Positions 16,401 through 33,661 of a DNA stretch of 64,000 bases are shown piece by piece. The first letter of the stretch is position 1. Each line of letters begins with the position of its first letter. A program made the position numbers and the translations under genes. The stretch covers positions 1 through 64,000 of IMG/VR virus record IMGVR_UViG_3300037470_001029; one strand, written 5' to 3'. Origin of the DNA: a virus. The notes beneath the pieces were generated by a model, which was not told where the DNA came from, did no database searches, and saw only the letters and a program-made list of their open reading frames with translations.

Positions 16401-17055
16401 CGCCGATGCTCTGGTTGAACTTTTCGATGTCGACGCCGTGCTTTATCCAGACGCCGAATGCGGCGCCGACCGCCAGCGCCGGGGCAAGCATCGCCGCGAG
16501 CCCCTTAACCGCCGCCCACGAATGGGTGGCAAGCTGGGCGAGCTGGCGCAGCGCCATCGGGAAATCGCCGCGCATCAGGGCCTGGGCCATCTGCATGAGG
16601 TCCGTCTTGGCGCGCTGGGAGAACGAGCCCACCTTTGCTCCGGTCTCGTCCACGACGCCACCCATGTCCTGGAGGACCTTGATCGCCTGTTCAGTCTCCT
16701 TGTTGTAGCTGCCTTGCGCACCACGCAATGCCGCAATCGCGGCCGTCGCCTCATCGGCCGACATCTTGTAGTTCTTGAGGGCGCTTGCCGCGACCTCCTC
16801 GGCCTTCGCCTGCTGCTGCACCGCCTGCGTGGCGCTGTCGATCGACCTTGTCGTGTGCTCGAAACGGGCCTTGACCTGTTCGAGAGTCTCGCCGGTGCGC
16901 TTCATGACACTTTGGTATGCCATGTCTTCGTTGGATAGCCGCTTGACCTGCGCCTCGGTGCGCCCGCCCGCCTCGGTCACCGAGTCGAGCGCCGACTTCG
17001 CCGTGACGGCGGACGTGGAGTCGATCTCGATGCCCAGGGAAGCGATGTCGGTCAT
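13495..17055 (-). CDS. tail tape measure protein
   Basis: 1186 aa, Ala-rich helical, MTDIASLGIEIDS start; follows chaperone pair. Confidence 0.9.
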   Translation of the reverse strand: MTDIASLGIEIDSTSAVTAKSALDSVTEAGGRTEAQVKRLSNEDMAYQSVMKRTGETLEQVKARFEHTTRSIDSATQAVQQQAKAEEVAASALKNYKMSADEATAAIAALRGAQGSYNKETEQAIKVLQDMGGVVDETGAKVGSFSQRAKTDLMQMAQALMRGDFPMALRQLAQLATHSWAAVKGLAAMLAPALAVGAAFGVWIKHGVDIEKFNQSIGATGALLAGTGRAGIVSSGELSTYVETLKKVSNVSEEMAMKVVQSFAKQGAIGREMFGELTGMVPDFARAMGVDAAGAAEELAAALGKPLTGVIALDEKYNILTFDQYKQVQAMVEVGDAAGIQAIALEALHGRIDGLHNEGLTPLQKAWDDLLRAWRGTPEEGEKVNTMMDNLAHNVSLMADAVRTAKDWWAEFLKVIGDTAPIKAANAVLEISLRLRQALGLAADKDKVAADAAQAAHVAHAKLIAEQDAKAIAGQEAAILARQAKEKAMYAKRLQEAKKSADELRREQSKALADELKALEAFHAEQNKMRDLDDAGWVKYIEAQIKEYEDGLIAMGKMSKSAAEQRLIDEKEANKQSEKELRRHVQDQISLWAEVGNYIGTFLTAVIVDNENAVDMLKRMWKQFFAELIQLFATKMVLNLAANITGNGALSIAASAAGQGSTAGAVYEYASGAWSAYQGGSTAWGALTGTGATTAAGGQVTAATFGNVVGGGSSTAAAGATPMSGMAVAGIVAIVIAAMIANDAMYQRGWRADDQSGIADMPGGPLTGDRLLRSLGLGDRAASLLSGSSLHTRIWGRRATQADASGISGTVTGAGEIEGGRSWQDYSQAGGWFRSDRRWTESEELTADQAAPFTDALAQIHKQMVALGKLIGVDAAAILENYTHEFVLQLTSTSGQEEVDAAIAQFLNDVFVEQAALVLGEATGYIRSYIDKFRGTQAELIDGIVALVTIFEVVSRSPMEDVATMLYESSNQFQTALSNNDRAIRAQLEAYDGSLESTQALAQATVDYYNAQVQLLASIEQVRLAVTGMFDTVLQSIELSGMTAQQQYEFYQRQANDARDAALLSTDPAEIQRQAGIVTSSISSAWSLLSPEQQTALRTQFLEDGRAAQSAITTHLTDIQTTAATQMQSALDAIKEAITAGAATQTAAANTQLQAANTNANTTHRVDVGISVEDNRVNTTVVNDGG

Positions 17056-17983: not shown

Positions 17984-19264
17984 TTACGCCGCCGCGGAAT
18001 CCTGCACGGTCAAAATGGTCTTGTCCCACGCGAGCGCCGCATCGCCATCGCCGTTGATCTCGGCGGTGAACGGGTAGGTGCGCATGATCGCCTTCAGCCC
18101 GTCGTCCGGCGTGTCGCCCATCAGGGCGATCTTGCCGAGCGTGAACGCCATGAAGTCCGCCGTCGCGCTCGTGTCGACCGCGGCGACCACGGCGAGGCTC
18201 ACCTTGGTGCCGGCGTCGAAGATCGCCTGCAGGACCGTGTCGTCGAACATCGCGGTGAACGATCCGTTCACCTTGACGTTGCCGTGGTTGAAGTCCGGCG
18301 AGGCCGGGTTGCCGATGGAAGCGCCCACCGGGGTCAGGCTGCGGTCGACGGACAGCGACAGGCCGGTCACGTGCTCGACCAGAACACCGTTGATGTAGAT
18401 CGCGCCGTTGACGGCCTGCGAAACGCCGGTCGTCGTCTCGGCCGCCGGGGTAGTGAGCACCTGCGAACTGCCGAGCGTGCGAACCCCGAGCCCTACCAGG
18501 TCGAACGCGACCCCCGACGCGCCCGCGGCCGGGATCGAGAAGTCGATCTTGTTGGACTTGATGTCCGGGAACAGCTCGCTGCGCGCCTTGTCGCTGTACC
18601 ACTCTTCCCAGGTGAAGAAGTCGTTCGTGTGCGCCGTGAGCGGGGCGAGCGAGATCTTGCCGACGACGGTGAACGTGACTGAGCCGGTCTCCGGGGCCTT
18701 CGGCGCGACTGCGGTGCCGTCCAGGAACTTGCCGGTCATGTCGCCGGCGGTCAGCGCCGTGATCCAGAAGTTGCGGTCGTTGTTCGCCGTCGCCGTGGTG
18801 GTGAAGCCTGTCCAGCGCCCGACCATCCCGACCTTGAGCCCTGCGGCGAGGAACCCGGCAGAGCCATCGACGAACTGCGGCCCCGCAGCCTGCGACGTGA
18901 TGTCGGTCCCGGCGACCAGCGGCGTCACCGCCGCGAAATCGGCCATCAGCACAGAGGCGATGATCGGCGAATAGGTGCCGGCCGAGAGCAGGCAATCGAG
19001 CTTGAGCCCGGTGTCCTTCTGCCCGAACACCACGCCGGTATCCTGGCGGTGGCTCACGATCTCGTCGAGGGTCGTCGACTGGCGCGTCGCGGTGGCGACC
19101 GACGTGCGACGGCGGACGATCTGCCCTCCGGCGCCGGACTCCGGCACGCCCAGGCCACCGGCCTGTTTCTTGAAAACCGTCTGCTTGTAGAGGCCCTGCG
19201 CGGGCGACAAACCGAGGAGGAGCCCCGCGCGCTGGAGATACTGAACGATCAACTTGAGTTTCAT
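17984..19264 (-). CDS. major tail tube protein (with N-terminal leader)
   Basis: 426 aa upstream of chaperones; FTWEEWYSD, GSFTAMFDD; AAGGAG RBS. Confidence 0.8.
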   Translation of the reverse strand: MKLKLIVQYLQRAGLLLGLSPAQGLYKQTVFKKQAGGLGVPESGAGGQIVRRRTSVATATRQSTTLDEIVSHRQDTGVVFGQKDTGLKLDCLLSAGTYSPIIASVLMADFAAVTPLVAGTDITSQAAGPQFVDGSAGFLAAGLKVGMVGRWTGFTTTATANNDRNFWITALTAGDMTGKFLDGTAVAPKAPETGSVTFTVVGKISLAPLTAHTNDFFTWEEWYSDKARSELFPDIKSNKIDFSIPAAGASGVAFDLVGLGVRTLGSSQVLTTPAAETTTGVSQAVNGAIYINGVLVEHVTGLSLSVDRSLTPVGASIGNPASPDFNHGNVKVNGSFTAMFDDTVLQAIFDAGTKVSLAVVAAVDTSATADFMAFTLGKIALMGDTPDDGLKAIMRTYPFTAEINGDGDAALAWDKTILTVQDSAAA

Positions 19265-19288
19265 TTGCGTGACTCCTTCGTCTTTGGT

Positions 19289-19654
19289 TTACTTTTCGGG
19301 CGTCGCGTTACGCCGCGCCACGTGCACTTCGCTCGGGTCTCCGCCGTCCGCCGCAGCGACTTGGGCCTCACCCTTGGCGATCTTCTCCCTGGCCGCCGCT
19401 GCCTTGGCCTCGTTCTCCTTGAGCAGCTTCTCGCCCGCGGCCCTGCGCTTGGCATGCACGCGGGCCTGCTCCGGCGTGGGCTCGACAGGAGAGTTCGCCT
19501 CGTCCGTCTTGACGAGCCGCTCGAACTCAGCCTTCTCCGCAGCCGGCGTGCCCTTCGGCCACAGTGCGGAGAATCCGCCCTTGTCGCTGAGCATGCCCTT
19601 GGCATTCTCGATCGTCGCCTCGGTTTTCTTGCCCTTTGCATCGAAGATCCACAT
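19289..19654 (-). CDS. hypothetical protein
   Basis: 121 aa, AAGGAG RBS. Confidence 0.6.
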   Translation of the reverse strand: MWIFDAKGKKTEATIENAKGMLSDKGGFSALWPKGTPAAEKAEFERLVKTDEANSPVEPTPEQARVHAKRRAAGEKLLKENEAKAAAAREKIAKGEAQVAAADGGDPSEVHVARRNATPEK

Positions 19655-19676
19655 GGCCGTCTCCTTCGTTGGAAAA

Positions 19677-20081
19677 TTAAGCTACCCAGGCGTGAAAAGG
19701 AACCCTTACGACGAGCGACCATCGGTCGCCGTCAGGGACGCCGTTGCCTACCTCGGCAGGCTTGTTAATAGAAGTGTTGATCCCCGAATGCGTCAGCGTC
19801 AACGCCTTCGGGAACCAGTCGCCGATCGCCTTTGCGCGGGCCGCGGCGTTGATCGAGCCCTGGTTCTGCGGGTACATCAGCGTCACCTGCAGGTAGCCTT
19901 GCTCGAACCGGCCCTTGCCCCATTCCGCGTTGTCGGGGCGCGCGAACAGGACGTGCGACTTCTGGTAAGGAACCGTTACCGCCGGCGGCGCGAAGGAGAC
20001 GTTCTCCCACGCGGTAGCCAGCGACGGCGCCATCGCGTTCAGGCGGTTTTCGAGCGCGGAGCGGACGGCGGCCTGGCTCAT
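19677..20081 (-). CDS. tail terminator-like protein (DUF4128-like)
   Basis: Start ATG 20081; AWENVSFAPP...GYLQVTLMYP. Confidence 0.75.
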   Translation of the reverse strand: MSQAAVRSALENRLNAMAPSLATAWENVSFAPPAVTVPYQKSHVLFARPDNAEWGKGRFEQGYLQVTLMYPQNQGSINAAARAKAIGDWFPKALTLTHSGINTSINKPAEVGNGVPDGDRWSLVVRVPFHAWVA

Positions 20082-20551
20082 GCCAGTCCTTGCGCGGCGC
20101 CGGCGACAATCTGCTGGAACTCGATCACAGTAATGTGCACCATGCCGGCCGGCGCCTGCGTAGACCACCCGTCCTCGAGCCTTTGCCCGTAAGGCAAGTT
20201 GTTCGTGATGATGAAATTGCCGCCGGCGACCCTCTCAGGGATCGCGCCGATTATCCTCATCGTCGAGACGTTGCTCTCTGCCGGGCTCGGGTCGATGTCG
20301 GGCAGCTCGTTCGACGGCACCGAGTTGTTCCCCCCCTGCCAGTTCGCGCGGAACCTGCCGCCGACGTAGCCGGGAGGGGGCGGAGACTTCCACAAGTCGC
20401 CGTCTCCGACCGGCGAGAGCTCTACCAGCCGCGTGCCGACGTCGATGATCGTCTTGCGCACCGCGGTGTCCGCGTTCTTCCCCGCCTTGGCGGCGAACGC
20501 CGCGAGCTGAAGGCTGAACGAGTCGGACCGGTTGTAGTAGCCGCGAGCCAT
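20078..20551 (-). CDS. HK97 gp10-like neck protein
   Basis: SPV...GRFRANW...NNLPYGQRLEDGWSTQAPAGMV. Confidence 0.8.
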   Translation of the reverse strand: MARGYYNRSDSFSLQLAAFAAKAGKNADTAVRKTIIDVGTRLVELSPVGDGDLWKSPPPPGYVGGRFRANWQGGNNSVPSNELPDIDPSPAESNVSTMRIIGAIPERVAGGNFIITNNLPYGQRLEDGWSTQAPAGMVHITVIEFQQIVAGAAQGLA

Positions 20552-20874
20552 TATCTCCGCTTCTTCTTGAAGATAGACGACGACTTCTTCTTGGACATCG
20601 GTCCGGTGGCAGGCAAATGCAGCGCCCCGCGGGTAAGCGGATTCGGGCGACGCAGGTCGGGCACGCCGGGACCACGCGTGATTGGATTCGGTCTGCGCAG
20701 GTCAGGCACTCCAGGGCCGCGTCGGATGGGGTTTGGACGCCGCAGGTCAGGAATCCCGGCCCCTCGCGTTATGGGGTTTGGCCGGCGAAGGTCCGGCACC
20801 CCGCGACCGCGGCTCAGCGGATTCCGTTGCCGCGCTACCTTTGCCGCCCTTCTTGCCGCTTCGCTCCAAGCCAT
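20551..20874 (-). CDS. MAWS(D/E)AAR-family basic protein with 15-aa tandem repeats
   Basis: Start ATG 20874 (CAGGAG RBS); MAWSEAARRAA then NPxxRGxGxPDLRRP repeats; Lys-rich tail. Confidence 0.7.
   Translation of the reverse strand: MAWSEAARRAAKVARQRNPLSRGRGVPDLRRPNPITRGAGIPDLRRPNPIRRGPGVPDLRRPNPITRGPGVPDLRRPNPLTRGALHLPATGPMSKKKSSSIFKKKRR
20626..20823 (-). repeat. 45-bp / 15-aa coding tandem repeat, about 4.4 copies
   Basis: NPLSRGRGVPDLRRP NPITRGAGIPDLRRP NPIRRGPGVPDLRRP NPITRGPGVPDLRRP NPLTRG. Confidence 0.9.
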
Positions 20875-20935
20875 GTCGATCTCCTGTGGTTCTTGCGCGC
20901 CCAATAAAAAGGCGGTCATGAATATGGAAAGCATT

Positions 20936-21304
20936 TCATTTTCTCAAATGAAGCATGTACAGCACCACGGTTCCTGCGGGGTTCGTCTCTCCGATTCCCT
21001 TAATCACGTAGACCGCGCCGTCGGCGAGGATGATCAGATCCTCGAGCCCTGGCACGATGCCCTTTTCCATCAGCAACTTCTTGTCGCCGACGAGGATTAA
21101 CCCGCCCGGGCCATTCTCCTGTCCTGCCCTGAAGTCGAACAGCGCTGCCTTGCGCGCTACATCCACCGGCCCGCCACCGGTCATCCCACCCGTGTCCGGG
21201 TCGTAGGTGCCAGGCGCGTTATTGCGCAGCGTCACAACCTGACCGAATTCCTCTAGCAGATCGGCGGAAACAACGGCAAGTTCGTCGTAGAGAGGATTCG
21301 TCAT
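20936..21304 (-). CDS. head closure protein
   Basis: LLEEFGQVVTL...YDPDTG...GDKKLL...NPAGTVVLY. Confidence 0.75.
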   Translation of the reverse strand: MTNPLYDELAVVSADLLEEFGQVVTLRNNAPGTYDPDTGGMTGGGPVDVARKAALFDFRAGQENGPGGLILVGDKKLLMEKGIVPGLEDLIILADGAVYVIKGIGETNPAGTVVLYMLHLRK

Positions 21305-21828
21305 GCGCGTGCCACCCGCATATTAAGGGCGCTGCCGGTCAGGTAAGGCGAGAGCATTGCATCGATCGCCCTAAAACGCGGATATTCGCTCGAAGCCGGG
21401 TCGTAGGTCACACTGATTTCTCCGACGCGCACAGAAGACTTCGAGCGCGTCAGATCTGGGGAAAGCTCACCGGCCGCGGCGCGCAGCGCCAGCTCGGCGC
21501 AGGCGTTCTTGACCTCGGCAGGCACGATGTTGTCGGCAACGAGGTAAGGTTGCTCGCCGACGCCGCCCTGGATGAACGGCTCTAAGTAGACGTAAGCCCT
21601 AGGCCAATCGAGGGCCTGCGTAGCATCCTTGCGGAACCCTTTCCAGCGACCGCGGAACATCTGCAACATGTAGTCAGTCGCGCGGCGCAGTGCTTGCTCC
21701 ATCTGCGCCTCGGTAAGCAGTGCCCACGTCGATGCGCCGCGCGCCGCGTGGTATGCGGAGACGTCGGCGACCGAGACGTAGCTCTCGGCGTTCGCCTTCG
21801 CGGTGCCGTCTTCGACTTCGAGGCTCAT
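21301..21828 (-). CDS. head-tail adaptor (DnaT-like annotated family)
   Basis: VEDGTAKANAESYVSVAD...QALDWPR...VKNACAELAL. Confidence 0.8.
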   Translation of the reverse strand: MSLEVEDGTAKANAESYVSVADVSAYHAARGASTWALLTEAQMEQALRRATDYMLQMFRGRWKGFRKDATQALDWPRAYVYLEPFIQGGVGEQPYLVADNIVPAEVKNACAELALRAAAGELSPDLTRSKSSVRVGEISVTYDPASSEYPRFRAIDAMLSPYLTGSALNMRVARA

Positions 21829-23579
21829 GGATAGTCTCTCTGAATCGCAGCAAGCGGATATTGCGCACTTGTTCCGGTGAGCGGGAATTTATCTGATGGC
21901 ACAACACCGATCAGTGGGTACCTATGGCTAGCAGGCACCAGAGCGATGCACTGATCAGTCGCATTGCACGCCTCGTCGACCGAGGCAGCAATGGTCCCTG
22001 GAGGCAGGTCGATCTCGCCGGACAACAGATCGAGCGCGGAGCCTGCCTCGACGGTGATCCCCAAGGTGAGTCGAGAACCACTTGGGGTGTCGATGCAGGT
22101 TGCCGGTTCGGTGACCGAAGCAAGAAGGGTCCCCGTGGCCGCAGGCGCATCCGTACCGCTAGCCGCTTCCGCAACCGCGGCGTCGGCGTCCCTGGAGGCG
22201 CTTGGCGACTCGGATGCGGACGACGCCTCCGCGGTGGCCACAAAATGGGCCTCGTTCAGCCACCCGGGCTCGTCCACGGCTGTCGCCGCTTCAAAGGCCC
22301 CGGAATTCAGGCTCGCTGCTGCGCCAGGAGCATCCGTGGCCGCCGCAGGCTCGTTCACCGCAGCTACGCCCGCCACAAACGACTGTGGGGAATCCATGGC
22401 CGCTGCGGGCTCGCCCACATCGGCTTGGAACGTGGCGATGGCAGACGGCGAATCGGTGGCGGCCGCAAGTTCGTCGCCGGCCGCGGTGATGCCACCCAAG
22501 ATAGCGCTCGGGTCGTCGGTCGCCGCGGCGCTCTCGGTCTGCTCGACCTGCCTCGAGGCAAAGGACTCCGGCGCATCGGTGACAGACGCGGACTCGGCCT
22601 GAGCAGCTTCCCGTAAGGCCTGACTTGTCGGATCGTCGGTCGCAACTGCCGATTCAGTCGTGTCCGCGACGGCGGAGGTCTGGGCGCTCGAGGAGTCAGC
22701 CGAAGCACCCGTCTCTCCCGTCGCCGCGGCATGCACGACCACCGCGCTGGGGGAATCTGCGGCAGACGAAGTCTCCGTTGTATCGCCTGCAACCGCGCCT
22801 CCTCCTGCCTCGATGGAAGCATCCAAGCTGTCAGCAGCAGAGGCCGACTCGTCTGCCGCCGAGTTCAGGGTAGACGCGCCGCTTGGGGAGTCAGTTGCGC
22901 TCGCCGCCTCGCTACTGTCGGCATCGATCGCCGGATCTGTCCAGGTAAGGACCACGATCCCGGCGGCGCCAGCGCCGCCGATCTTGTTCGCCGCCTGGTT
23001 TGTGTTCCCTCCTGAGCCTGCGCCGCCGTAGATGCTGCCAGCCGTGCCTACGACTCGGACCGCTACGCCTGCGCCAGAGGCCCCGCTGTAGCTGTTGCCG
23101 TCGAGGAAGGCGCTCGTCTCTGGCGTGCCTGCCGTGTCGGCCGAAGCCGCACCACCGACACCGCCAGGCCCTGCCGCGCCGCCGCCTGCCCCAGAGACGG
23201 TGTTCGTCCCGGTCGCGTTCCCGCCGTTCCCGCCCGCAAAGGTGACGTCACCGGTATTCGCCCCGACTAGGGCCGAGGCGCCAGTCGCGCTGTTCGCGGC
23301 AACTGTTGCACCGCCAGCGGCCGACAGGACGGTTGATGCGCCCTGCACTACCGTGGATGCTGCTGCCGCCCCGCCGACCGTGATGTCGAGAGTGCTCTCG
23401 CCGCCTTTGGTAATGGCGACCTTCGCGTAGCTGCCGCCCTTGCCGCCCCCGCAGTTCGCGGGGTTGTTCGTGGCATCTCCACCCGCACCGCCGCCCCCCA
23501 ACGCCTCGGCGGTGAGTTGTGTGACGCCGGCAGGCCACGCCCACGCGGCGTCAGATGCGGTGAGGACGGCAGAGCCCAA
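21825..23579 (-). CDS. virion-associated protein: Gly-rich N-domain plus acidic repeats
   Basis: WPAGVT...GGGGAGG domain, then about 16 ExAxAxD-S/A-P repeats of ~21-22 aa period. Confidence 0.65.
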   Translation of the reverse strand: MGSAVLTASDAAWAWPAGVTQLTAEALGGGGAGGDATNNPANCGGGKGGSYAKVAITKGGESTLDITVGGAAAASTVVQGASTVLSAAGGATVAANSATGASALVGANTGDVTFAGGNGGNATGTNTVSGAGGGAAGPGGVGGAASADTAGTPETSAFLDGNSYSGASGAGVAVRVVGTAGSIYGGAGSGGNTNQAANKIGGAGAAGIVVLTWTDPAIDADSSEAASATDSPSGASTLNSAADESASAADSLDASIEAGGGAVAGDTTETSSAADSPSAVVVHAAATGETGASADSSSAQTSAVADTTESAVATDDPTSQALREAAQAESASVTDAPESFASRQVEQTESAAATDDPSAILGGITAAGDELAAATDSPSAIATFQADVGEPAAAMDSPQSFVAGVAAVNEPAAATDAPGAAASLNSGAFEAATAVDEPGWLNEAHFVATAEASSASESPSASRDADAAVAEAASGTDAPAATGTLLASVTEPATCIDTPSGSRLTLGITVEAGSALDLLSGEIDLPPGTIAASVDEACNATDQCIALVPASHRYPLIGVVPSDKFPLTGTSAQYPLAAIQRDYP

Positions 23580-23582
23580 CGC

Positions 23583-23762
23583 TTACTCCTCGACCGACTC
23601 GACCTGGTCCTCGGTGAACGACCTCTCCTGCCCGTCCTCGGTCTTGACGATCACGCCGACCTCGCCGGTTTCCTGGTTGAACACGAAGCGCTCGATCACA
23701 CCCTCAACCGGCGCTGGGAGGACTTGGCGAACCGCGTCGCCCTTCTTGAACTTCGTTGCCAT
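23583..23762 (-). CDS. small hypothetical protein (59 aa, SH3/KOW-like)
   Basis: Not in ORF track; AAGGAG RBS; MATKFKKGDAVRQVLPAPVEGVIERF...ERSFTEDQVESVEE*. Confidence 0.7.
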   Translation of the reverse strand: MATKFKKGDAVRQVLPAPVEGVIERFVFNQETGEVGVIVKTEDGQERSFTEDQVESVEE

Positions 23763-23773
23763 GTGCCTTCTCC

Positions 23774-24496
23774 TTACAGCGAGGAGCTGTAGCTGACGTT
23801 GAGGGTATCGGAGACGTCCACGACCTTGTCACCGCCGGTGAACACGCCGGCCGACCAGAGCTTGCCGTTCACGTCGGCGATGGTCGAGAGGGCGCCGGTG
23901 CCGAAGATGATGAAGCAGCCCTTGACCGTGCCGCCTGTGGTGATGATCGGGAACGACAGCGCAGCCGAAAGAGCCTTCGACTTCGCCGCCGCTGCCGACC
24001 ACGCGCACGTCTTGCGCGGTGTGGTATACAGCGGGAAGTTCGTCGAGGACCCGGCCTCCTTCCAGCCGTTCGTGCCGTTGATCTGCGCGGCGGTGTCACC
24101 GATCGCCGTGGTCGTATAGCTGACCGAGCTGATCAGCCCCATGTAGGGGCCGACGACGGTGTAAGCAGAACCCGCGAGGAACGTATCCAGCGCGAGGTTC
24201 GCGCCCTCGGTCGTCACGTGGTTCGGTGCCTCGCCGCGCCACTTCTCCTCGAGCGGGATCTCCGCGAGCGCCTTCCGAAGGGAGCGAGCGCGCAAGACCA
24301 GCGAGCCAGGCTTGAAGCAGAGCAGCTCGTCGTTGATCTCGGTATACTCGCGGCGGAGATGTTCGACCGGACCAACGTTGACGGCGCGGAATATCCCGAC
24401 GGCCTTCGCAGCCTCGACGACGACCAGGTTCTTGGAAATTCCTGCGAGAGCAGAGGATCGACCATTTGCCCTTTCGTTCGTTTCCTTGCGTTCCAT
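23774..24496 (-). CDS. virion structural protein
   Basis: NHVTTEGANLALD...GDKVVDVSDTLNVSY; AAGGAG RBS. Confidence 0.6.
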   Translation of the reverse strand: MERKETNERANGRSSALAGISKNLVVVEAAKAVGIFRAVNVGPVEHLRREYTEINDELLCFKPGSLVLRARSLRKALAEIPLEEKWRGEAPNHVTTEGANLALDTFLAGSAYTVVGPYMGLISSVSYTTTAIGDTAAQINGTNGWKEAGSSTNFPLYTTPRKTCAWSAAAAKSKALSAALSFPIITTGGTVKGCFIIFGTGALSTIADVNGKLWSAGVFTGGDKVVDVSDTLNVSYSSSL

Positions 24497-24510
24497 CTGC
24501 GTCTCCTTAG

Positions 24511-24553
24511 AAAGAGAAAAGGGGTTGGGCCGTTGCGCAGCCCAACCCCTTTG
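24511..24553 (-). terminator. intrinsic terminator after capsid cluster
   Basis: Minus strand GGGGTTGGGC-loop-GCCCAACCCC followed by TTTTCTCTTT. Confidence 0.75.
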
Positions 24554-24570
24554 GGCTTTTGATCGGCGGA

Positions 24571-25254
24571 CTAGCCTTTCTTGTCCGCCTTCTTCAGCTT
24601 TTTGATCAGCTCATCCTTGTTCTCGCCCTGCGTGTAATCCACGCCGGCGGCGTCAAGGCGCTCCTGCAGCTCGGACTTGGTCAGGGTCTCGAGGTCCTCG
24701 TCGGCGGGAGGAGCCGCGGTGCCCTTGCCGGCGCCCTTGCCCGACGCAGCCTTGGCTTCCTTCTCCTGGCGGGCCTTGAGTGCCTCGTTGGCGGCCGCGG
24801 CGTCCTTCTCGGCCTTGTCGGCATCGGCCTCGGCCTTCTCCGCGGCCTTTTCTTTCGCCGCGGCGTCGGCCTTCAGCTTCGCCAGGCTCGCGGGCGTCGC
24901 GGTAACGTTGACGCCGGGGTTGCCGCCGTTGGCGGCGAGCGCGGCGGCGCTGTCGGCGGCGGTGCGCGCAGCGACGGCGGCGGCGCGGGCCTTCATCGCC
25001 GGGTTCGTCTCGGCCATCTTCCGGTGGTCCTGGACTTCGGTCGAGGCGGCGTGCTGCTCGTACTGCGAGCGCATGTTCTCCTTGCGCCGCTCCTCTTCGG
25101 AGGCGCGGAGCACCTCGCCGGCGGTCTTGGCGGGCGGGTCGCCCTTGGCAGCGTTCGGGTCGTCGAACGTGTACTCGCCGGTCTCGACCATCTCTTTCGC
25201 GTCGACGGCTTCGTGGTGGGAGACGGCGCCGGTTTCCTTGTGGAAGACTTTCAT
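24571..25254 (-). CDS. Ala/Lys-rich protein with C-terminal HeH/LEM (Rho-N-like) domain
   Basis: DLETLTKSELQERLDAAGVDY...NKDELIKKL. Confidence 0.65.
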   Translation of the reverse strand: MKVFHKETGAVSHHEAVDAKEMVETGEYTFDDPNAAKGDPPAKTAGEVLRASEEERRKENMRSQYEQHAASTEVQDHRKMAETNPAMKARAAAVAARTAADSAAALAANGGNPGVNVTATPASLAKLKADAAAKEKAAEKAEADADKAEKDAAAANEALKARQEKEAKAASGKGAGKGTAAPPADEDLETLTKSELQERLDAAGVDYTQGENKDELIKKLKKADKKG

Positions 25255-25337
25255 GTTCTCTTACTCCTTCGGGTGTTCTCTTACGTTGGGAGGCCCCGCC
25301 GCCGGGCTTGGAAAGCCGAGCGGCGGGGAGGGCGGGA

Positions 25338-25841
25338 CTAGCGCTTCGCCAGGAAGGCGAGGTAGGTGATGCTGTTCGCCACGGCGCCGACGTTCACCGT
25401 GCGGATGCGCAGGTAGCGGAAGGTCGTGCCGCCCTTCTCGTTGCGCACCGGCATGATGTAGCGGCCGACGACGTCGTCGTAACCCTGGCCGTCCGCGACG
25501 TGGCGCGCCGACAGCGCCGCGCCGAGCGTGATGCTGCCCAGCGAGGCAATGTTGGCGGCCGTGCCGAAGGTGGCATCCGGAGAACCCTGGACGATGATCT
25601 CGTAGCTCTCGTCGGTCGTCACCACGTCGATCGCGGAGACGTCGACGACGAGGTCCATCGCGGCCAGCCCGTTGCCGATGTCGACGATCAGCGTGCCGTC
25701 CGCGGAGGCGGTGACCGCGGCCGACGCCTTGAGCAGCAGCGCGTTGTCGTAGGTCTTGCTGGAGTAGAGAGCGGAGAGCACCGTTCCCGTCCACGCCATG
25801 TAGGCGGCGATGCCCGCCAGGAAGTGCTTGATGCTTTTCAT
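25338..25841 (-). CDS. capsid cement/decoration protein (with N-terminal leader)
   Basis: Start ATG 25841 (GAAAGGA RBS); jelly-roll-like YDNALLLK...YEIIVQGS...RYLRI; directly after MCP. Confidence 0.7.
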   Translation of the reverse strand: MKSIKHFLAGIAAYMAWTGTVLSALYSSKTYDNALLLKASAAVTASADGTLIVDIGNGLAAMDLVVDVSAIDVVTTDESYEIIVQGSPDATFGTAANIASLGSITLGAALSARHVADGQGYDDVVGRYIMPVRNEKGGTTFRYLRIRTVNVGAVANSITYLAFLAKR

Positions 25842-25869
25842 GAGCTTTGTCCTTTCGGTGGGTGGCAGG

Positions 25870-26895
25870 TTACGCGACGACGGCGAGGTTGCCGATGTGG
25901 CGCAGGCGGGTGAGGGAGCGGCCGTTGTAGACGGCGAACCCGTTGTACCACTCGACGCGGGTCCGATACATCGGAGAAGCCTCCAGCTCGCCCAGGTCGC
26001 GCACGTCGACGCCGCCATTCTGGATGCCCTGGATCGCGCCATCGCCCATGCTCAGCACGTAGATCGACGTCGCCGTCGCGGTGCCGGAGGCCGCGGCCTC
26101 GTTGAAGCCGAGGATCGCCGCCTGCGTGTTGTCCAGGTCCACCGTCAGGATCGGCAGGTCGTTGTAGATGGTGATGCGCTTGCCGAAGGAGTCCTTGTCG
26201 TAGGTGATGAAGCCGCCGACGGTGTAGTTGCGCGCGGCCGCGGTGATGAGCCGGCGCATCGCCTTGCTCATCAGCAGGTGGGTCGGGTTCAGCGTCTGGT
26301 CGATCGCCTCATCGAGCTTGCCGAGCGAGAGCGCGGCGCCGTTGGCCGTCGAGCCTGCGCTGATCACCTGCGCTCCGGTGGCTCGCGTCTGCAGCCCGTC
26401 GAACTCGCGCGGATCGGTGGCGGTGTCGCCCTTGATGAACTTCTTCGTCCACGCCAGCGCCAGGGCGCGGACCTTCATGGCCTCGTGGGTGGAGCGCTGG
26501 GCCATGCCCATCGTGTCGACGATGAACTTGTCGACGTCGAGGTCGCCGCCGGCGATCACCAGCGACTCGGTGAGGGGATTCAGCACGCCGGTCGAGGGCG
26601 TGTAGGCCTCGTTCACCCCGCGGAAGCCGACGCCGGGCAGCGACTCTTCCCGGTTGTACTTCATCGCGTTGCCGGGGATCGTGTCGAAGGGCAGATTGGC
26701 GAGGATGTCGCTGGAGCCCGCGTAGAGCTCGATGATGGCCTGGCGGATCACGTCGCCGGTCTCGAGCTTCGCAGCCTCGACGAGAGTCAGGCCGCCGAGC
26801 ACGACGCCCTGGCGGTACATCAGGTTGTTGAGGAACGCGGAGAGCGCTGCGATGACCAGCATGACCGCGAGATGGAGTTTCTTGAGGGCAGCCAT
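25870..26895 (-). CDS. major capsid protein (with N-terminal leader)
   Basis: Start ATG 26895 (AAAGGAG RBS); LTLVEAAK...LPGVGFRGVNE...GGDLDVDKFI...EFDGL. Confidence 0.88.
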   Translation of the reverse strand: MAALKKLHLAVMLVIAALSAFLNNLMYRQGVVLGGLTLVEAAKLETGDVIRQAIIELYAGSSDILANLPFDTIPGNAMKYNREESLPGVGFRGVNEAYTPSTGVLNPLTESLVIAGGDLDVDKFIVDTMGMAQRSTHEAMKVRALALAWTKKFIKGDTATDPREFDGLQTRATGAQVISAGSTANGAALSLGKLDEAIDQTLNPTHLLMSKAMRRLITAAARNYTVGGFITYDKDSFGKRITIYNDLPILTVDLDNTQAAILGFNEAAASGTATATSIYVLSMGDGAIQGIQNGGVDVRDLGELEASPMYRTRVEWYNGFAVYNGRSLTRLRHIGNLAVVA

Positions 26896-27138
26896 GGAGG
26901 CTCCTTTCGAATCGGTTGAATGGGAAAATCGTTTGCCGCTCGCCCATCCCGGACGATTCGCCGAAGTCCCCGCATCCCGCGGATCTCCAAGCAACTTCTT
27001 TTCTGGGTTCGCAGGCCAAAGCACCTGTCCCAGATGCTTTGGCCTTGACCCCAGTGCGTCGGGAACTCCTAGGCTCTCCCGACCAAGCCTGAGCCGGCAG
27101 CATATACCTGCCGGAGCGGCGCTGTAACCCAGTGCCTT

Positions 27139-28185
27139 TTAGCGCTTGGCCCCTGCCTGCAATTCGCGCGCTTTCGTCAGCCGATCGGTCGGAGACAATC
27201 CCGAGAAATCGGGCGCGCCGCGCACGGTGCGCTTGTCGCCCTTGGCGTCGCCGCCGCTCCCGCCTGCCGGGAACCAGTGTGGGCAGTCCGCGCGGCGCTC
27301 CTCGATCCAGTCCTCGACCGAGAAGGGCGCCTTGCCCTCCTTGTTGAGCACGACCGTCTCGCCGTCCTCCTCGAACTGGACAGCCTTGAGCTCGTCGTTC
27401 AGCGAGAAGATCTGCCTGGCGCGCAGCAGCGCATCCTCGATCGCGCCCGGGAACATCCCCGCGTTGGTCGCCGCGGCGCGCACCTTGTTGTCGATCGCGT
27501 GCTCCATCAGCGTCGAGGCCACCTCCAGCGCGCCGTCGCGCTCCTCGCCCGCGGTCTGCGCCTGGCTCATCAGCTCCTCGCGCATCTTCTGGGTGCGGGC
27601 CTCCATCACCTTGTCGATGTGGCCGGCCTGGATCATCTTGCGCTCTTCCTCGCTGGCGAACTGCGACAGGAGCTCGCGGGTCTTGACCGGGTCGATGCCG
27701 TCGAACTGCTTGAGCTGCGTCTCGTACTCCTCCCTAACCTTCTTGATCTTGTCTTCCGAGTTACGGCGCTCGTTCTCCGCGACCTTCTTGAGCCCGGTGA
27801 CATCTTCGACGTCGACCTTGGAGTGGTCCAGCTTGAACTTCTTCGTCGCCGGGTCCTCGGCGTACCAGGCGCGCATGAACTCCGGCACCGCCTCGAGCTT
27901 GTCGACCTCGGGGGCGATGGCGCCGAGAGACAGCCCGCAGCGCTCGATCCATGACGGCTCGAACGGGTCCGCCGCCATCAGCTTCAGCGGCTGGAGGGGA
28001 CGCCCGAACGTCAGGACGCTGAGCCACAAGCGGCCGGTGAACAGGAGGTAGATCCGCTCGCGGAGCGTCAAGCCCCAGCACGAGATGGCCTGCCCGTTGT
28101 CGCCGACGTGCGCCGGCAACGGGATGTACGGCTTCTGGTCCTTCGCGATCACGATGTTCTGCTGCTTGAATTCGACCGGCTTCAT
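27139..28185 (-). CDS. capsid scaffolding protein with extra N-terminal domain
   Basis: VDKLEAVPE...EDVTGLKK...coiled coil...PHWFPA-GGSGG; position upstream of MCP. Confidence 0.8.
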   Translation of the reverse strand: MKPVEFKQQNIVIAKDQKPYIPLPAHVGDNGQAISCWGLTLRERIYLLFTGRLWLSVLTFGRPLQPLKLMAADPFEPSWIERCGLSLGAIAPEVDKLEAVPEFMRAWYAEDPATKKFKLDHSKVDVEDVTGLKKVAENERRNSEDKIKKVREEYETQLKQFDGIDPVKTRELLSQFASEEERKMIQAGHIDKVMEARTQKMREELMSQAQTAGEERDGALEVASTLMEHAIDNKVRAAATNAGMFPGAIEDALLRARQIFSLNDELKAVQFEEDGETVVLNKEGKAPFSVEDWIEERRADCPHWFPAGGSGGDAKGDKRTVRGAPDFSGLSPTDRLTKARELQAGAKR

Positions 28186-28252: not shown

Positions 28253-28372
28253 CTACTTGCTTTTTTTCTTGCCCTTCTGGAACGGCGGCAGCTTGCCCTT
28301 GCCCTTCGGAGCTTCGGACTTGCCTCTGCTGCCCTTCTGGTAGTTCTTCAGCCCTTCAGGTACCTTTCCCAT
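28253..28372 (-). CDS. 39-aa Lys/Gly-rich peptide
   Basis: Not in ORF track; AGGAGG RBS; MGKVPEGLKNYQKGSRGKSEAPKGKGKLPPFQKGKKKSK*. Confidence 0.6.
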   Translation of the reverse strand: MGKVPEGLKNYQKGSRGKSEAPKGKGKLPPFQKGKKKSK

Positions 28373-28829
28373 GATCGCCTCCTAAGTTTTGCTCGCGCGA
28401 TCCCTGCGCGTAGGGTTCACTTCTGAGAGTATATCCTGGCTTGTTCTCCAGCCGACGCGCCCGCACGTTGTCGGTCGCGTCGAAGCCCAGCTTGCGCAGC
28501 GCGCTGGCCAGCGCCATCGGATCTCCGTGGCTCGCCGCGTAATCGTCTGCCTCGAGTTCTTGCCTGTAGCGGCGCGACGGCGACGCGCGCATGAAGAAGC
28601 AGACCAGCAGGAGATTCTTCCAGATGTGGCGGTGGTGGCGGTGCCCCTCCTCGTGCAGACGCACGGCGTGCCACTCGTCCGGCGTGAGGCGGTCTACGTA
28701 ATCGTCTGGGATGATGATGCGGAAGCCGTTGAAGGATGCGCCCTGCGGATTGGCGTAATACATGCCGACTAGATGCAGCGCGATCCACAAGACCCAGATG
28801 ACGGCGAAGACTGTTCCGGCAATGACCAT
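28356..28829 (-). CDS. M48/M56-like zinc metallopeptidase with N-terminal TM
   Basis: LTPDEWHAVRLHEEGH...RQELEADDYA...LASALRKL. Confidence 0.75.
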   Translation of the reverse strand: MVIAGTVFAVIWVLWIALHLVGMYYANPQGASFNGFRIIIPDDYVDRLTPDEWHAVRLHEEGHRHHRHIWKNLLLVCFFMRASPSRRYRQELEADDYAASHGDPMALASALRKLGFDATDNVRARRLENKPGYTLRSEPYAQGSREQNLGGDHGKGT

Positions 28830-29902
28830 CAGGCGTATCTCGCGCGCAGTTGTCCGACGGTCATTATGCGCGTCCCGTCGAGCGACAGCAACTGCTCCAG
28901 TGTCAGCTTATTGTCGCGCCAAAGGTCTGCGCGCCCGGGTCCGAGCGCCTCGTCCTGCCATGCCTTGCCCTTGCGGCGCAGGAAGGCCTCGAAGTCCATG
29001 CCAGCCGACACGGGACCGTCGCTCGATGCGCGGCGGCCGGGCTTGGCCTCCTCGGCGTCGATCCCTAGCTCCTTGTAGGTCTTCGTCACCGCGACCGCCA
29101 CGCACCGGCAGCCCCAGTGGATGACGCCCGGCCCGCCCTCCCACGCGAGGGAGTGGCCCTGCGGTTTCGGCGGGTCGTCGAGCAGAGTGTACCGCTTGCG
29201 ATCGCGCGGCCCGCAGATCGGGCATGTGTGGACATCGAGCGTCGCGAGCCAGCGGATTCCCGAGAGCGCGTCTGCATTCCTGCGGAATGTCTCCATGCGC
29301 GCCTCATTGGCGGCCGCCTGGATGCTTGTGTGCACGAGCGAGCGGGCATTGCTGCGCGCCACATCCATAACTCCTGGAATGCCGAGCCGCGGCGACCCGA
29401 CAACGCGGCGAACAATTTGTTCGTTGGCCTCGCCTGCGGCGATCCCCTGGCGGACGGCGGTGGAGAACCGCCAGGCGGTGTCCTGCGACTGCCGCAGCCA
29501 CCAGTCGGCCGACGACGAACCCAGCAGCAGAGCGTTGGACGCCACGCGGGCGAGGAACGTCTCCGTAGGCAGGCCGACCGCCAGCACGATGCGGAGCGCA
29601 GGCCCGAGCGCCTGCGCGGTGGTCTCCGCCGTGGCTCGCGCCGCGCCGGCCATCGACGTGCTGAGGACGGCCTGCCCGGTCGCGTAGTAGCGGTCGATCA
29701 CGGCCGTGGCCTGGCGCAGCATCTGTTGCGTGCGCGCCTTGGTGAACTCGGTCAGGTCTCCGCCCGCAAGCGTCTGCGCCAGCTCGGCCTGCAGCCGGTT
29801 GAGTACGGCGAGCACGCGGGCGCGCACGCCGGCCTCGAACCTGAGCAGGTCGATCTGGTGCTCGAGGATGAGGTCGATCAGCGCCTGGTCTATGGTTCCC
29901 AC
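28829..29902 (-). CDS. MuF / SPP1 gp7-like minor head protein
   Basis: ARSLVHT, WLATLDVHTCPIC, IHWGCRC. Confidence 0.85.
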   Translation of the reverse strand: MGTIDQALIDLILEHQIDLLRFEAGVRARVLAVLNRLQAELAQTLAGGDLTEFTKARTQQMLRQATAVIDRYYATGQAVLSTSMAGAARATAETTAQALGPALRIVLAVGLPTETFLARVASNALLLGSSSADWWLRQSQDTAWRFSTAVRQGIAAGEANEQIVRRVVGSPRLGIPGVMDVARSNARSLVHTSIQAAANEARMETFRRNADALSGIRWLATLDVHTCPICGPRDRKRYTLLDDPPKPQGHSLAWEGGPGVIHWGCRCVAVAVTKTYKELGIDAEEAKPGRRASSDGPVSAGMDFEAFLRRKGKAWQDEALGPGRADLWRDNKLTLEQLLSLDGTRIMTVGQLRARYA

Positions 29903-30090
29903 TAGCAAGAGCTCCGCGGTTTAGGCGCAATGATAATGCGGCGATCAGTGACCTGCGTACGCAACCTGAGGCTGTTGTCGCGCCAACCACACTTTGAGGC
30001 TTCGAGAGCATCAAACCTCTCATCGATGTCCTTCATCATGCTCACGGCAAGATTTCTAGCCAACTGCTGAAGTAGCTCTTTGAGCATCAA
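29902..30090 (-). CDS. hypothetical protein
   Basis: 62 aa filling the gap with overlapping start/stop codons. Confidence 0.45.
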   Translation of the reverse strand: MMLKELLQQLARNLAVSMMKDIDERFDALEASKCGWRDNSLRLRTQVTDRRIIIAPKPRSSC

Positions 30091-30805: not shown

Positions 30806-31236
30806 TCCGCCTTCTTCATTCTGTTGGTCATGCCCTCTTGCAGCATCAGGCAGGAGCCGTAGTCGTGGCAGACGAGCCTGCCCTTGAGCATTCCATAGTT
30901 GTACCGCTTGAAGTCGGTCAGGTAAGCGGGCATTCTCTCGGGGAACTTCGTTGCCATCGTCGTGCGGCGCTGCATCAAGATCCCGCCGCTCTGCGAGATC
31001 CAGACACACGGGGCGAACCACCTGGCATGGGGAGTTCCCTTGACCATATCCCACACCTGCCACTCGAAGATATTCTGGAAACGGTCCTTGTTCTGGTCTT
31101 CGATCTTAATAACGATGCCATCGTCGATCGCAGACTCGTACACGTGCCGCGTCAGCCCGGTGCCGATCAGGGCGCCCGTTACGCTGACTGCCAGCTCGTG
31201 CTGAAGCGACGGGTTGTACAGGTGCGTATTGCTCAC
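30793..31236 (-). CDS. minimal protein-kinase-like fold protein
   Basis: GTG start coupled to portal stop; IGTGLTRHVY, VIK, QNIFE, DFKRYNYG, HDYG. Confidence 0.7.
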   Translation of the reverse strand: MSNTHLYNPSLQHELAVSVTGALIGTGLTRHVYESAIDDGIVIKIEDQNKDRFQNIFEWQVWDMVKGTPHARWFAPCVWISQSGGILMQRRTTMATKFPERMPAYLTDFKRYNYGMLKGRLVCHDYGSCLMLQEGMTNRMKKAEWWD

Positions 31237-33305: not shown

Positions 33306-33661
33306 GGCTGCTGCACCTTGACGCGCAGCTCGCGGTTGACATCGTCCAGCTCAGCCTTGTAGCGGAAGAACTGCTTCAGCTCCCACTGGTTGATCATGCG
33401 CGCGTCGCGCTTTGCCTCCAGCTCGAACACCTTGTCCTCGAGCGAGTTCTTGCGCTGGCGCAGGAACCCCGCGTCGGTGTACGCGCGCTGGGCGGCCAGC
33501 TCTTTTTTGAGCTCCTTCTTCGCCGCGGCGACGGCCTCCTCGGCCCTCTTGACGTCGGCGGCCTTTGCGTAGCGCGCGTCGATCGCCAGGGTGGCAATCA
33601 CGATCGCGGCGACCAAGCTGGCGAGCCACCAGATAGTCTTCTTCACTGCGGGATCGATCAT
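33302..33661 (-). CDS. single-TM coiled-coil protein
   Basis: N-terminal TM followed by charged coiled coil. Confidence 0.6.
   Translation of the reverse strand: MIDPAVKKTIWWLASLVAAIVIATLAIDARYAKAADVKRAEEAVAAAKKELKKELAAQRAYTDAGFLRQRKNSLEDKVFELEAKRDARMINQWELKQFFRYKAELDDVNRELRVKVQQP

Follow-up and report, generated by a model that had tools for sequence, protein, structure and literature searches.

The window, which is the whole 64,000-nucleotide stretch of viral DNA that was analysed, contains genes for a tail tube protein, a decoration ('cement') protein, a major capsid protein and a scaffolding protein. All four lie on the minus strand, and each begins ahead of the conserved part of its product. 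A small peptidase gene is found next to the scaffold gene. The features are as follows.

17984-19264, minus strand: tail tube gene (leader and mature part)
19211..19264, minus strand: tail tube leader, 18 codons, ending AGLLLG; RBS GAAGGAG, 7 bases to the ATG
17984..19210, minus strand: mature tail tube protein (PF18906, phrog_290)
25338-25841, minus strand: decoration gene (leader and mature part)
25773..25841, minus strand: decoration leader, 23 codons, ending TGTVLS; RBS GAAAGGA
25338..25772, minus strand: mature decoration protein (phrog_427)
25870-26895, minus strand: capsid gene (leader and mature part)
26794..26895, minus strand: capsid leader, 34 codons, basic N-terminus then hydrophobic stretch, ending RQGVVLG; RBS AAAGGAG, 6 bases to the ATG
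25870..26793, minus strand: mature major capsid protein of the epsilon15 gp7 type (PF20911, phrog_212)
27139-28185, minus strand: scaffold gene (passenger domain, linker and mature part)
27976..28185, minus strand: passenger domain of 70 residues, fused ahead of the scaffold; RBS AAAGGAG; stand-alone homologues exist
27922..27975, minus strand: scaffold linker of 18 residues bearing the shared motif, ending CGLSLG; the same motif occurs in other scaffolds
27139..27921, minus strand: mature scaffolding protein (phrog_206)
28356..28829, minus strand: candidate leader peptidase, a mini M48-type zinc peptidase (Pfam M48, Ste24p profile, model fold, co-occurrence)

The four leaders are real and translated. 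Each upstream ATG has AAGGAG, GAAAGGA or GAAGGAG at 6-8 bases on its 5' side. Leader GC3 is of the coding type (capsid 0.88, decoration 0.91, tube 0.78, scaffold 0.95); it is 0.92-0.96 in the mature parts and 0.56 in the scaffold-capsid intergenic stretch. The preliminary description, made from the letters of the window, had placed a leader ahead of the structural core on these four proteins, and both lines of evidence agree with it. On the same two grounds, a translation start downstream of the motif was rejected. It is very improbable that the real starts are internal GTG or TTG codons near the junctions and the upstream frames are chance extensions, common as long chance ORFs are in GC-rich genomes such as this: a GTG does lie three codons ahead of the capsid junction and a TTG at the tube junction, but the internal codons are preceded by no more than weak or misplaced purine runs, and the junction motif is kept in three capsid families and hundreds of sequences.

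The capsid protein matches Pfam PF20911 above the curated cut-off (E 1.4e-11; 44.3 bits, cut-off 27), and phrog_212 (E 1.1e-82) aligns from residue 36. Among the best 120 homologues of the capsid protein, 50 have a variable leader of 26-57 residues; its frame is kept open over 26-57 codons, and its length changes in-frame. Conservation is concentrated at the end of the leader. Glycine is found five residues ahead of the junction in 50/50 of these sequences, the next residue is hydrophobic in 49/50, and leucine lies two residues ahead in 41/50. The residue just ahead of the junction varies (G 21, T 9, N 8, S 3, H 3, A 2, others 4), and the first mature residue is Ala in 32 and Gly in 18. The remainder of the leader varies, with a median of 2 Lys/Arg among the first 8 residues followed by a hydrophobic core. 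Closely related capsid proteins (75-80% identical) have no leader and start exactly at the junction (M-A-LTLVEAAK).

The other virion proteins are built in a similar way. phrog_427 aligns from decoration residue 30, and leaderless decoration relatives start M-(A)-N-L-Y-S-Q; in the related loci L004, L024, L041, L062 and L063, too, the decoration protein has a leader with Gly five residues ahead of the junction. In the tube protein, Pfam PF18906 (Phage_tube_2) aligns from residue 25 and phrog_290 from residue 22. A second leader-bearing tube gene is found in L317, with a different leader which ends SGLALG; other tube relatives are leaderless. An earlier idea, that the leaders coordinate head and tail assembly, is poorly served by a tube leader present in just these two genes. 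For the scaffold, phrog_206 (E 2.7e-31) aligns from residue 93, leaderless relatives start M-A-L-x-L-V-V-D, and the junction motif is also present in L004, L007, L022, L024, L025, L062, L063 and L103. The scaffold extension had been described as a leader like the others. The motif is indeed at its junction, within the 18-residue linker, but the extension is no simple leader: most of it is the 70-residue passenger domain, which exists elsewhere as stand-alone proteins (10 homologues of 75-114 residues). The passenger-scaffold fusion also occurs in L022 and L024.

In leaderless relatives of all four proteins, Met stands immediately ahead of the first post-junction residue; phiCbK, CcrSC and DSS3_MAL1 are among the named phages with such relatives. 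The preliminary description had homologues usually beginning just after this point, and the capsid, scaffold, decoration and tube relatives do begin at that residue. Alignment confirms all four extensions, with the family profiles aligning only after the leaders. Gly five residues ahead of the junction is common to all decoration, scaffold and tube leaders seen. Among the 19,669 residues of crude ORFs in the window there are 9 occurrences of the pattern G[LVIMFT].L[GS]; four of these are the leader ends and four are in probable antisense or otherwise unannotated ORFs. Judged by these sequence comparisons, the leaders are portable modules with a conserved junction motif. The cassette would begin with a segment of variable sequence, basic and either hydrophobic or amphipathic, and end in the conserved junction (R/K)-x-G-hydrophobic-x-L-x, with Ala or Gly next.

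The leaders differ in hydrophobicity. The best 15-residue Kyte-Doolittle window is 2.4 in the capsid leader, 1.4 in the decoration leader and 1.08 in the tube leader, and the scaffold passenger domain looks soluble. Tethering of precursors to the membrane, which had been suggested for the whole set, is thus plausible for the capsid leader only.

The gene at 28356-28829 encodes 157 residues and is located between MuF and scaffold; its start and the MuF stop share one base. HEEGH is found at residues 59-63. In 9/9 aligned members H59, E60 and H63 are invariant, as are the HExGH and a downstream Glu; this is E91, in QExEAD (QELEAD here), probably the third zinc ligand. Pfam PF01435 matches with 22.3 bits (cut-off 20.3, E 1.3e-4) over residues 25-75 only, and profile matches include Ste24p (E 6.2e-8) and ZMPSTE24 (E 1.3e-5). 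An AF2 model (pLDDT 88.5) has one N-terminal hydrophobic helix, at residues 2-25. With VIA-align, the model is closest to ZMPSTE24 (Z 9.2, rmsd 2.8 A, 119 residues aligned), followed by BlaR1 (6.6), Ste24p (6.5), 3c37 (6.4) and BepA (6.4). These five best matches are all M48/M56 enzymes; the same enzymes come first in Foldseek, though their E values exceed 0.3. A common arrangement can account for Z values below about 13 in helical models, so the assignment of an M48-like catalytic fold rests on the model and the sequence profile jointly. HtpX and Ste24 have a multi-pass membrane architecture of 4-7 helices. The phage protein has one helix, and members of its family are 130-190 residues long; it is therefore a minimal M48 derivative rather than a canonical member. 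A tblastn search of 50,697 deposited phage records gave no match to the peptidase, and no cultured relative was found.

The peptidase is associated with the leaders. Among loci with epsilon15-type capsids it is present in 6/12 leader-bearing and 0/44 leaderless cases (Fisher p 2.8e-5, relatedness ignored), and among loci with P22-type coats in 9/18 and 0/40 (Fisher p 4.6e-6, relatedness ignored). Searches seeded with the peptidase only gave 13 further distinct phage loci with a downstream capsid-sized ORF, three of which tested as P22 coat family; 13/13 have a motif-bearing leader. In peptidase-seeded searches, every contig that included a capsid or scaffold gene had it in leader-bearing form. 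A count on the capsid tree weighs on the other side. The tree requires at least 8 changes of the leader and offers only 5 independent pairs; in these the peptidase changes in the same direction in about 2, in the opposite direction in 0, and is unchanged in 3 (sign test p about 0.5).

A sister clade of the peptidase lacks the membrane helix and goes with a shorter leader, ending LFPG-V/I, on 2-3 head proteins. It is present in 52/52 loci with the N4-gp56-type capsid, a third family (only loci with at least 3.5 kb of upstream sequence were counted), and its member in L127 matches Pfam PF01435 with 27.6 bits. The motif changes with the peptidase clade, from G-hydrophobic-x-L-G to LFPG-V/I, which suggests that recognition is direct. 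The peptidase at 28356-28829 is thus tied to the leaders by genome comparisons in three capsid families, in agreement with its earlier nomination as a candidate. A second nominee, the C1-like peptidase at 33658-34371, is not supported; by tblastn over 103 loci it is present in the window alone.

A classical prohead protease was also considered and rejected. PF04586, PF01343 and PF00574 (S78, S49 and ClpP-like) have 0 matches in the complete 72,037-base record (CheckV 100%), while controls matched, and Pfam scans of the 20 ORFs between 17984 and 35176 detected no S78, S49 or ClpP protease.

We propose that the four extensions are translated N-terminal propeptides of one portable cassette, most likely removed near the junction, and in this phage most likely by its own M48-type peptidase; we give this reading a probability of about one half. 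The cut would fall at the junction or a few residues ahead of it, and would produce mature N-termini identical to those of leaderless relatives, whose translation starts at that point. The peptidase, with one membrane helix and a Ste24/ZMPSTE24 catalytic core, would have its active site on the cytoplasmic side of the inner membrane. Cutting of the scaffold gene product, a small polyprotein on this view, would release the 70-residue passenger domain. The variability of the residue just ahead of the junction counts against this proposal, and the topology is awkward for it: a basic N-terminus followed by a hydrophobic helix normally inserts with the N-terminus inside, and a leader inserted this way would have its junction on the opposite side from a cytoplasmic active site.

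The preliminary description attributed cutting to one protease. About half of the leader-bearing phages speak against this: the peptidase gene is absent from 6/12 epsilon15-type and 9/18 P22-type leader-bearing loci, where the MuF-scaffold slot is empty or holds unrelated ORFs. Two records which are complete by CheckV (100%) and encode leader-bearing capsids (G001 and G003) gave no match to the peptidase profile, Pfam M48 or S78, and an HExxH scan returned a single unrelated 212-residue ORF. A host enzyme may therefore cut the leaders, and the phage mini-M48 would then be an accessory that such phages can do without: either their copy of a host M48 enzyme, which speeds processing, or a peptidase which clears released hydrophobic leader peptides from the membrane. 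Leaders occur without the peptidase but the peptidase never without leaders, a pattern which fits an enzyme dependent on leaders rather than leaders dependent on the enzyme. Enzymes of this kind are usual in hosts, as Pfam M48 matched 12/14 control bacterial genomes. We nevertheless consider this explanation rather unlikely. The junction motif covaries with the peptidase clade, and the peptidase occupies the usual head-protease slot, with the start overlapping the MuF stop. We know of no host substrate with the junction motif, which also counts against a host enzyme, and of no host model for a junction of G-hydrophobic-x-L-x followed by A or G. There is a precedent for host cutting in phage 80alpha: the host cysteine protease Prp trims the capsid and scaffold leaders, and the same tag is present on the major tail protein of phi13 (PMC5744158).

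Leaders which are never removed seem less probable still. They would be permanent N-terminal helices, serving during assembly to contact the membrane, a chaperone or one another, or else hiding N-termini from host sensors, with the conserved motif as a hinge or binding site. A protease is evident in only half of the phages, and in 80alpha the capsid leader need not be cleaved, and assembly requires an uncut scaffold leader (PMC5744158). However, the close capsid relatives that start at the junction manage without a leader, a hydrophobic appendage of 26-57 residues on each capsid, decoration and tube subunit is hard to fit in the same lattices, and permanent retention leaves the peptidase linkage unexplained.

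It is scarcely credible that signal peptidase I cuts the leaders as ordinary Sec signal peptides. Capsid leaders do have a basic N-terminus and a hydrophobic core, and those of the P22 type have A-x-A-like sites after ~22 residues, but capsid proteins have to remain cytoplasmic and the tube and scaffold leaders are insufficiently hydrophobic. Signal peptidase I needs small residues at -1 and -3 and does not accept T, N or H before the junction; position -1 is T, N or H in 20/50 capsid leaders.

Removal of the leaders by the phage peptidase, if correct, may represent a previously undescribed maturation system, and our literature search found no published description of a leader-peptidase system of this kind. 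We advance this wider reading tentatively. A portable leader cassette, placed on capsid, scaffold, decoration and tail-tube proteins in three or more unrelated capsid families, would be removed by a dedicated minimal M48 zinc peptidase, the first metalloprotease among head- or virion-maturation enzymes. In the membrane-anchored clade, the inner membrane would be the place where virion subunits are retained, or from which they are licensed, ahead of assembly, and the fused scaffold would be a mini-polyprotein. Such a pair would be a third, mechanistically distinct solution to trimming beside prohead serine proteases and Prp, and would bring decoration and tail-tube proteins under proteolytic licensing as well. 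A simple sequence rule would predict mature N-termini in many uncultured phages and prophages, start-codon calls in the capsid, scaffold, decoration and tube families would be corrected in both directions, and the compact protease-tag pair might serve as a tool. The cutter in the peptidase-less half of the phages could reveal a host processing enzyme, as the 80alpha work revealed Prp.

Classical prohead maturation uses serine proteases packaged within the prohead: HK97 gp4 (S78) with a delta domain, lambda gpC (S49/ClpP-like), and T4 gp21 with capsid-targeting sequences. The present system resembles these in a shared N-terminal site on head proteins and a (candidate) protease gene among the head genes. 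It differs in that the candidate is a metallopeptidase with a membrane helix, and in that the tail tube and an external decoration protein are among its putative substrates. Ste24/ZMPSTE24 (M48A) shares the catalytic core and a flanking membrane helix with the phage peptidase, and Ste24 reportedly trims the N-terminal extension of a precursor; however, it has seven membrane helices around a chamber and ~450 residues, whereas the phage form has a single helix within 130-190 residues. The LFPG-V/I system of N4-gp56-type Burkholderia-like phages is alike in having a leader common to several head proteins and a tiny M48 peptidase adjoining the portal gene. It is unlike in that its peptidase has no membrane helix, its leaders are 12-26 residues long, and both the junction motif and the capsid family are different.

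The analogy with 80alpha, which was drawn at the outset, fits, the tail-protein leader included. In both cases one short leader motif is common to non-homologous virion proteins (capsid, scaffold and tail), and a single site-specific protease which is not a classical prohead protease is at work there and has a candidate here. The two differ in site, putative enzyme and leader: an F-A junction which mimics ribosomal protein L27 there, and G-hydrophobic-x-L-x before A or G, which is not an L27 mimic, here; the host-encoded Prp there, and a candidate phage-encoded, membrane-anchored M48 zinc peptidase here; leaders of 13-14 residues there, and of 18-57 residues, often hydrophobic, here (PMC5744158). 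The hosts here are probably also different, being proteobacterial; related loci are found in Betaproteobacteria, Burkholderiales and Janthinobacterium records.

The window is part of a 72,037-base virus record rated 100% complete by CheckV, and it contains the late operon of a siphophage. All of the operon genes listed here lie on the minus strand.

Late operon genes in the window (coordinates, strand, assignment)
31233-32795, minus, portal protein, DUF4055 (profile matches)
28829-29908, minus, MuF-like protein (profile matches)
28356-28829, minus, HExxH protein of 157 residues (candidate peptidase)
27139-28185, minus, scaffold (profile matches)
25870-26895, minus, major capsid protein, epsilon15 gp7 type (profile matches)
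25338-25841, minus, decoration or 'cement' protein (profile matches)
between decoration and tail tube in operon order, minus, connector and tail-terminator genes
17984-19264, minus, tail tube (profile matches)
13495-17055, minus, tape measure (profile matches)

The stretch that separates the connector genes from the decoration-side genes contains a 584-residue ORF (21825-23579, minus strand) with a very high content of Ala, Ser, Thr, Gly and Asp and many loosely repeated A-x-D-S-P-S-like units. The stop codon of the MuF gene and the start codon of the peptidase gene share one base (28827-28831), an overlap which suggests that translation of the peptidase is coupled to that of MuF.

The preliminary description had placed N-terminal leaders on the capsid, scaffold, decoration and tail tube proteins. 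These are borne out by ribosome binding sites, codon signature, family-profile boundaries and the starts of homologues. AAGGAG, GAAAGGA or GAAGGAG lies 6-8 bases 5' of all four upstream ATGs. Third-position GC in the extensions is 0.88 (capsid), 0.91 (decoration), 0.78 (tube) and 0.95 (scaffold) in a genome of 65% GC; the mature parts have 0.92-0.96, compared with 0.56 in the scaffold-capsid intergenic stretch. The extensions therefore show the codon signature of translated sequence, and it is nearly certain that they are translated. Family profiles first align at residue 36 of the capsid, 93 of the scaffold, 30 of the decoration protein and 22-25 of the tube. The pattern G[LVIMFT].L[GS] occurs nine times in the 19,669 residues of crude window ORFs, and four of the nine are the four leader ends.

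Alignment to homologues, which the same description had called for, places the start of leaderless relatives of all four proteins at the junction between leader and mature protein. The capsids of the named phages CcrSC, DSS3_MAL1 and phiCbK start M-A-A-(L/V)-T-L-L or V-I-T-L-L, aligned with the first mature residues of the window capsid. Leaderless decoration, scaffold and tube proteins in related loci have Met followed directly by the residue after the junction. In Caulobacter phage phiCbK (JX100813.1; locus L003, 2917-3936) the deposited capsid CDS begins at a GTG 28 codons upstream, giving an Arg/Gly/Pro-rich extension. An ATG with AAGAGGAG 7 bases 5' gives the start M-A-A-V-T-L-L, the same as in CcrSC; the GTG is probably a wrong start call.

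Leaders are widespread among relatives of the capsid. In the best 120 of 3,606 homologues at E 1e-20 or better (the window protein counted in), 50 have a leader of 26-57 residues (median 39); the remaining 70 start no more than a few residues from the core and are mostly 308 residues long. The body of the leader varies in sequence and length among the 50. Its N-terminus is basic, with a median of two Lys/Arg in the first eight residues, and it is hydrophobic: for the best 15-residue Kyte-Doolittle window of each leader, the median score is 2.38, and 40 of the 50 score at least 1.6. The end of the leader is far more uniform, and the Gly five residues before the junction is also present in every decoration, scaffold and tube leader observed.

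Residues around the junction in the 50 leader-bearing capsid proteins
seven and six before: often R/K, then Q
five before: Gly 50
four before: L, M, V, F or I 49
two before: Leu 41
one before: G 21, T 9, N 8, S 3, H 3, A 2, others 4
first mature residue: Ala 32, Gly 18

The leader is a portable cassette, which occurs on one to four virion proteins depending on the locus: on four in the window, on three in loci L004, L022, L024, L062 and L063, on two in L007 and L025, and on the capsid only in L006, L023 and L027. The tube gene of locus L317 provides a second tube leader, with another sequence and the same ending. In the scaffold ORF, residues 1-70 (27976-28185, minus strand) form a domain that in 10 matches is a separate protein of 75-114 residues; it has a weak match to phrog_11885 and matched no Pfam family. 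The window, L022 and L024 share an in-frame fusion of this domain to the scaffold, with the motif located in an 18-residue linker between the two. There is an internal Met at scaffold residue 70, immediately ahead of the linker.

Capsids of the P22 coat type also have leaders. Those of L109 (9493-10827), L113 (2474-3772), L114 (2108-3439) and their relatives resemble complete Sec signal peptides, with MKK, a hydrophobic core and an A-x-A-like site near residue 22. An amphipathic segment of 30-35 residues, sometimes with two Cys, separates this site from the shared junction motif.

Since close relatives function without leaders and start exactly at the junction, the leaders are likely to be removed; we put the probability at about 0.75. 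As for the enzyme, the mini-M48 encoded at 28356-28829 is a candidate with slightly better than even odds of being the leader-cutting enzyme of this phage. It has a single N-terminal hydrophobic helix, the zinc-peptidase motif HEEGH and a conserved Glu within QELEAD. Pfam Peptidase_M48 matches it with 22.3 bits, just above the cut-off of 20.3, and a nine-member profile of the family matches the solved structures of Ste24p (E 6.2e-8) and ZMPSTE24 (E 1.3e-5). The best structural alignment of its AlphaFold model (pLDDT 88.5) is to ZMPSTE24 (Z 9.2, rmsd 2.8 A over 119 residues), followed by BlaR1, Ste24p, 3c37 (a putative M48 peptidase) and BepA. Foldseek ranks the same enzymes at the top, weakly, with nothing in the PDB at E 0.001 or better. 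On the basis of the Pfam score, profile matches, structural alignment and single helix, the protein can be assigned as a predicted minimal M48 peptidase, non-canonical in having one membrane helix and a catalytic core rather than multiple membrane passes.

The peptidase family is small: among 1.84 billion representatives it has 54 clusters at a threshold of E 1e-30 and 107 at E 1e-10, and most members have 130-190 residues. Queries with two members found nothing in 50,697 deposited phage genomes. In 401 sampled genomes from the order of genome record G006, with 10 candidates scored per genome, the profile had no match at E 1e-12, which indicates rarity at best and not absence. The 72,037-base record contains no S78, S49 or ClpP-type protease.

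The peptidase gene is tied to leaders in one direction. In both capsid types it was found only in leader-bearing loci.

Leader and peptidase in distinct loci with enough upstream sequence (P22-coat-type loci not deduplicated; Fisher p ignores relatedness)
epsilon15 type: both 6, leader only 6, peptidase only 0, neither 44, p 2.8e-5
P22 coat type: both 9, leader only 9, peptidase only 0, neither 40, p 4.6e-6

Leaderless members of the P22 coat family begin M-A-N-T-(L/I)-T, at the junction. Searches seeded with the peptidase alone gave 13 further distinct phage loci with a capsid-sized ORF downstream, and in all 13 this ORF has a leader of ~30-85 residues with the same motif ending. Three of these were tested and fall in the P22 coat family; its profile begins right after the junction. 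The count leaves out L129/L130, L132, L141 and L143 (contigs too short), L140 (peptidase-like ORF away from the head genes) and L146 and L147 (cellular M48 proteins at full length, 417-445 residues). In L115 (metagenome copy L135) and L137, which are distinct loci, the contig ends before the capsid gene and the motif is on the scaffold.

Half of the leader-bearing loci lack the peptidase. In these, either nothing or unrelated ORFs lie between MuF and scaffold; no consistent replacement gene specific to this class was found there, and in its gene content the slot resembles a site of variable cargo. In leader-bearing P22-type loci without peptidase, unrelated ORFs occupy the slot in L168 (4277-4900, 207 residues), L177 (3996-4841, 281 residues) and L165 (3834-4064, 76 residues), and in L173 it is empty. 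Genome records G001 and G003, CheckV 100% complete and with leader-bearing capsids, have no match to the peptidase profile, Pfam M48 or S78. An HExxH scan of the two gave just one ORF, of 212 residues and unrelated to the peptidase; this HELYH ORF (in the complete provirus G003, the record of L072, 31347-31985, minus strand) is the only credible one there and lies far from the head genes. Proviruses in isolate genomes are the source of L072 and also of L102, L110, L121 and L122, which have the peptidase. The mini-peptidase profile is likewise unmatched at E 1e-5 in the whole Janthinobacterium genome carrying L006. On the capsid tree at least eight gains or losses are needed for the leader and four for the peptidase; just five contrasts are independent, of which about two go the same way, none the opposite way and three show no change (p about 0.5).

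Because half of the leader loci lack the peptidase and no locus compared has the peptidase without a leader, it is a firm reading of these gene contents that the peptidase is found only where leaders are, and that leaders do not need a phage peptidase. Such a pattern fits a phage enzyme that takes over from a host enzyme or backs it up, in the way that some phages depend on host Prp, or else one that handles leaders after release.

A sister system is found in L126 (7935-11500) and L127 (674-4631), where a more distant mini-M48 without a membrane helix (Pfam score 27.6 bits) adjoins the portal gene. Two or three head proteins have a short leader ending LFPG-V/I; one is acidic and scaffold-like, one is the capsid protein (N4-gp56 type), and there is one more. 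Read by eye, the N-termini of nearly all 120 best N4-gp56-type capsid homologues have such leaders, of ~12-26 residues; a strict pattern matched only 19 of the 120. All 52 related loci (among L238-L316) that extend 3.5 kb or more upstream encode the sister peptidase; they are close relatives, compared without leaderless loci. Peptidase clade and junction motif thus change in step, an argument that the peptidase recognises the junction directly.

The cut may fall at the junction, and the Ala or Gly left there would be the residue that leaderless forms present once Met is removed. Ste24-type enzymes prefer aliphatic residues following the scissile bond; from this preference, the cut may instead fall directly after the invariant Gly, ahead of aliphatic residues. 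It had also been proposed that leaders might tether precursors to the membrane. This is plausible for the capsid leader, with a best hydrophobicity score of 2.4, similar to the 2.57 of the peptidase helix; the tube leader (1.08) and this phage's scaffold are not plausible tethers. A helix with a basic N-terminus is expected to take an orientation that does not clearly place the junction near a cytoplasmic active site.

Other proteolytic routes were considered and rejected. Type IV prepilin-like processing was suggested by the mature capsid start, which resembles G|hydrophobic-T-L-x-E; it was dropped because this feature is missing from the other three proteins, and leaderless capsids share the start. 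Rhomboid-type sites were dropped because N, H, K or R frequently precedes the junction. The ORF at 33658-34371 (minus strand), upstream of the portal gene, is papain-like (Peptidase_C1, weak; phrog_16701 'peptidase', E 1.8e-47). It had been named as a possible leader protease, but is ruled out as a shared enzyme by its absence from the other 102 of 103 loci; a weak match in leaderless L009 from a smaller search did not reappear among the 103 loci.

The analogy drawn in the preliminary description to Staphylococcus phage 80alpha holds as the closest known case. According to passages of PMC5744158, cleavage between F and A by the host cysteine protease Prp takes 13-14 residues off the 80alpha capsid and scaffold, the phi13 major tail protein bears the same tag, and capsid cleavage is dispensable. 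No account of a leader or peptidase system like the present one turned up in full-text literature searches; on comparative evidence, the system appears to be a variation on an 80alpha-like theme. As far as those passages describe 80alpha, the logic is the same in both phages; they differ in motif, in how long the leaders are and of what character, in taxa and in the class of the candidate enzyme.
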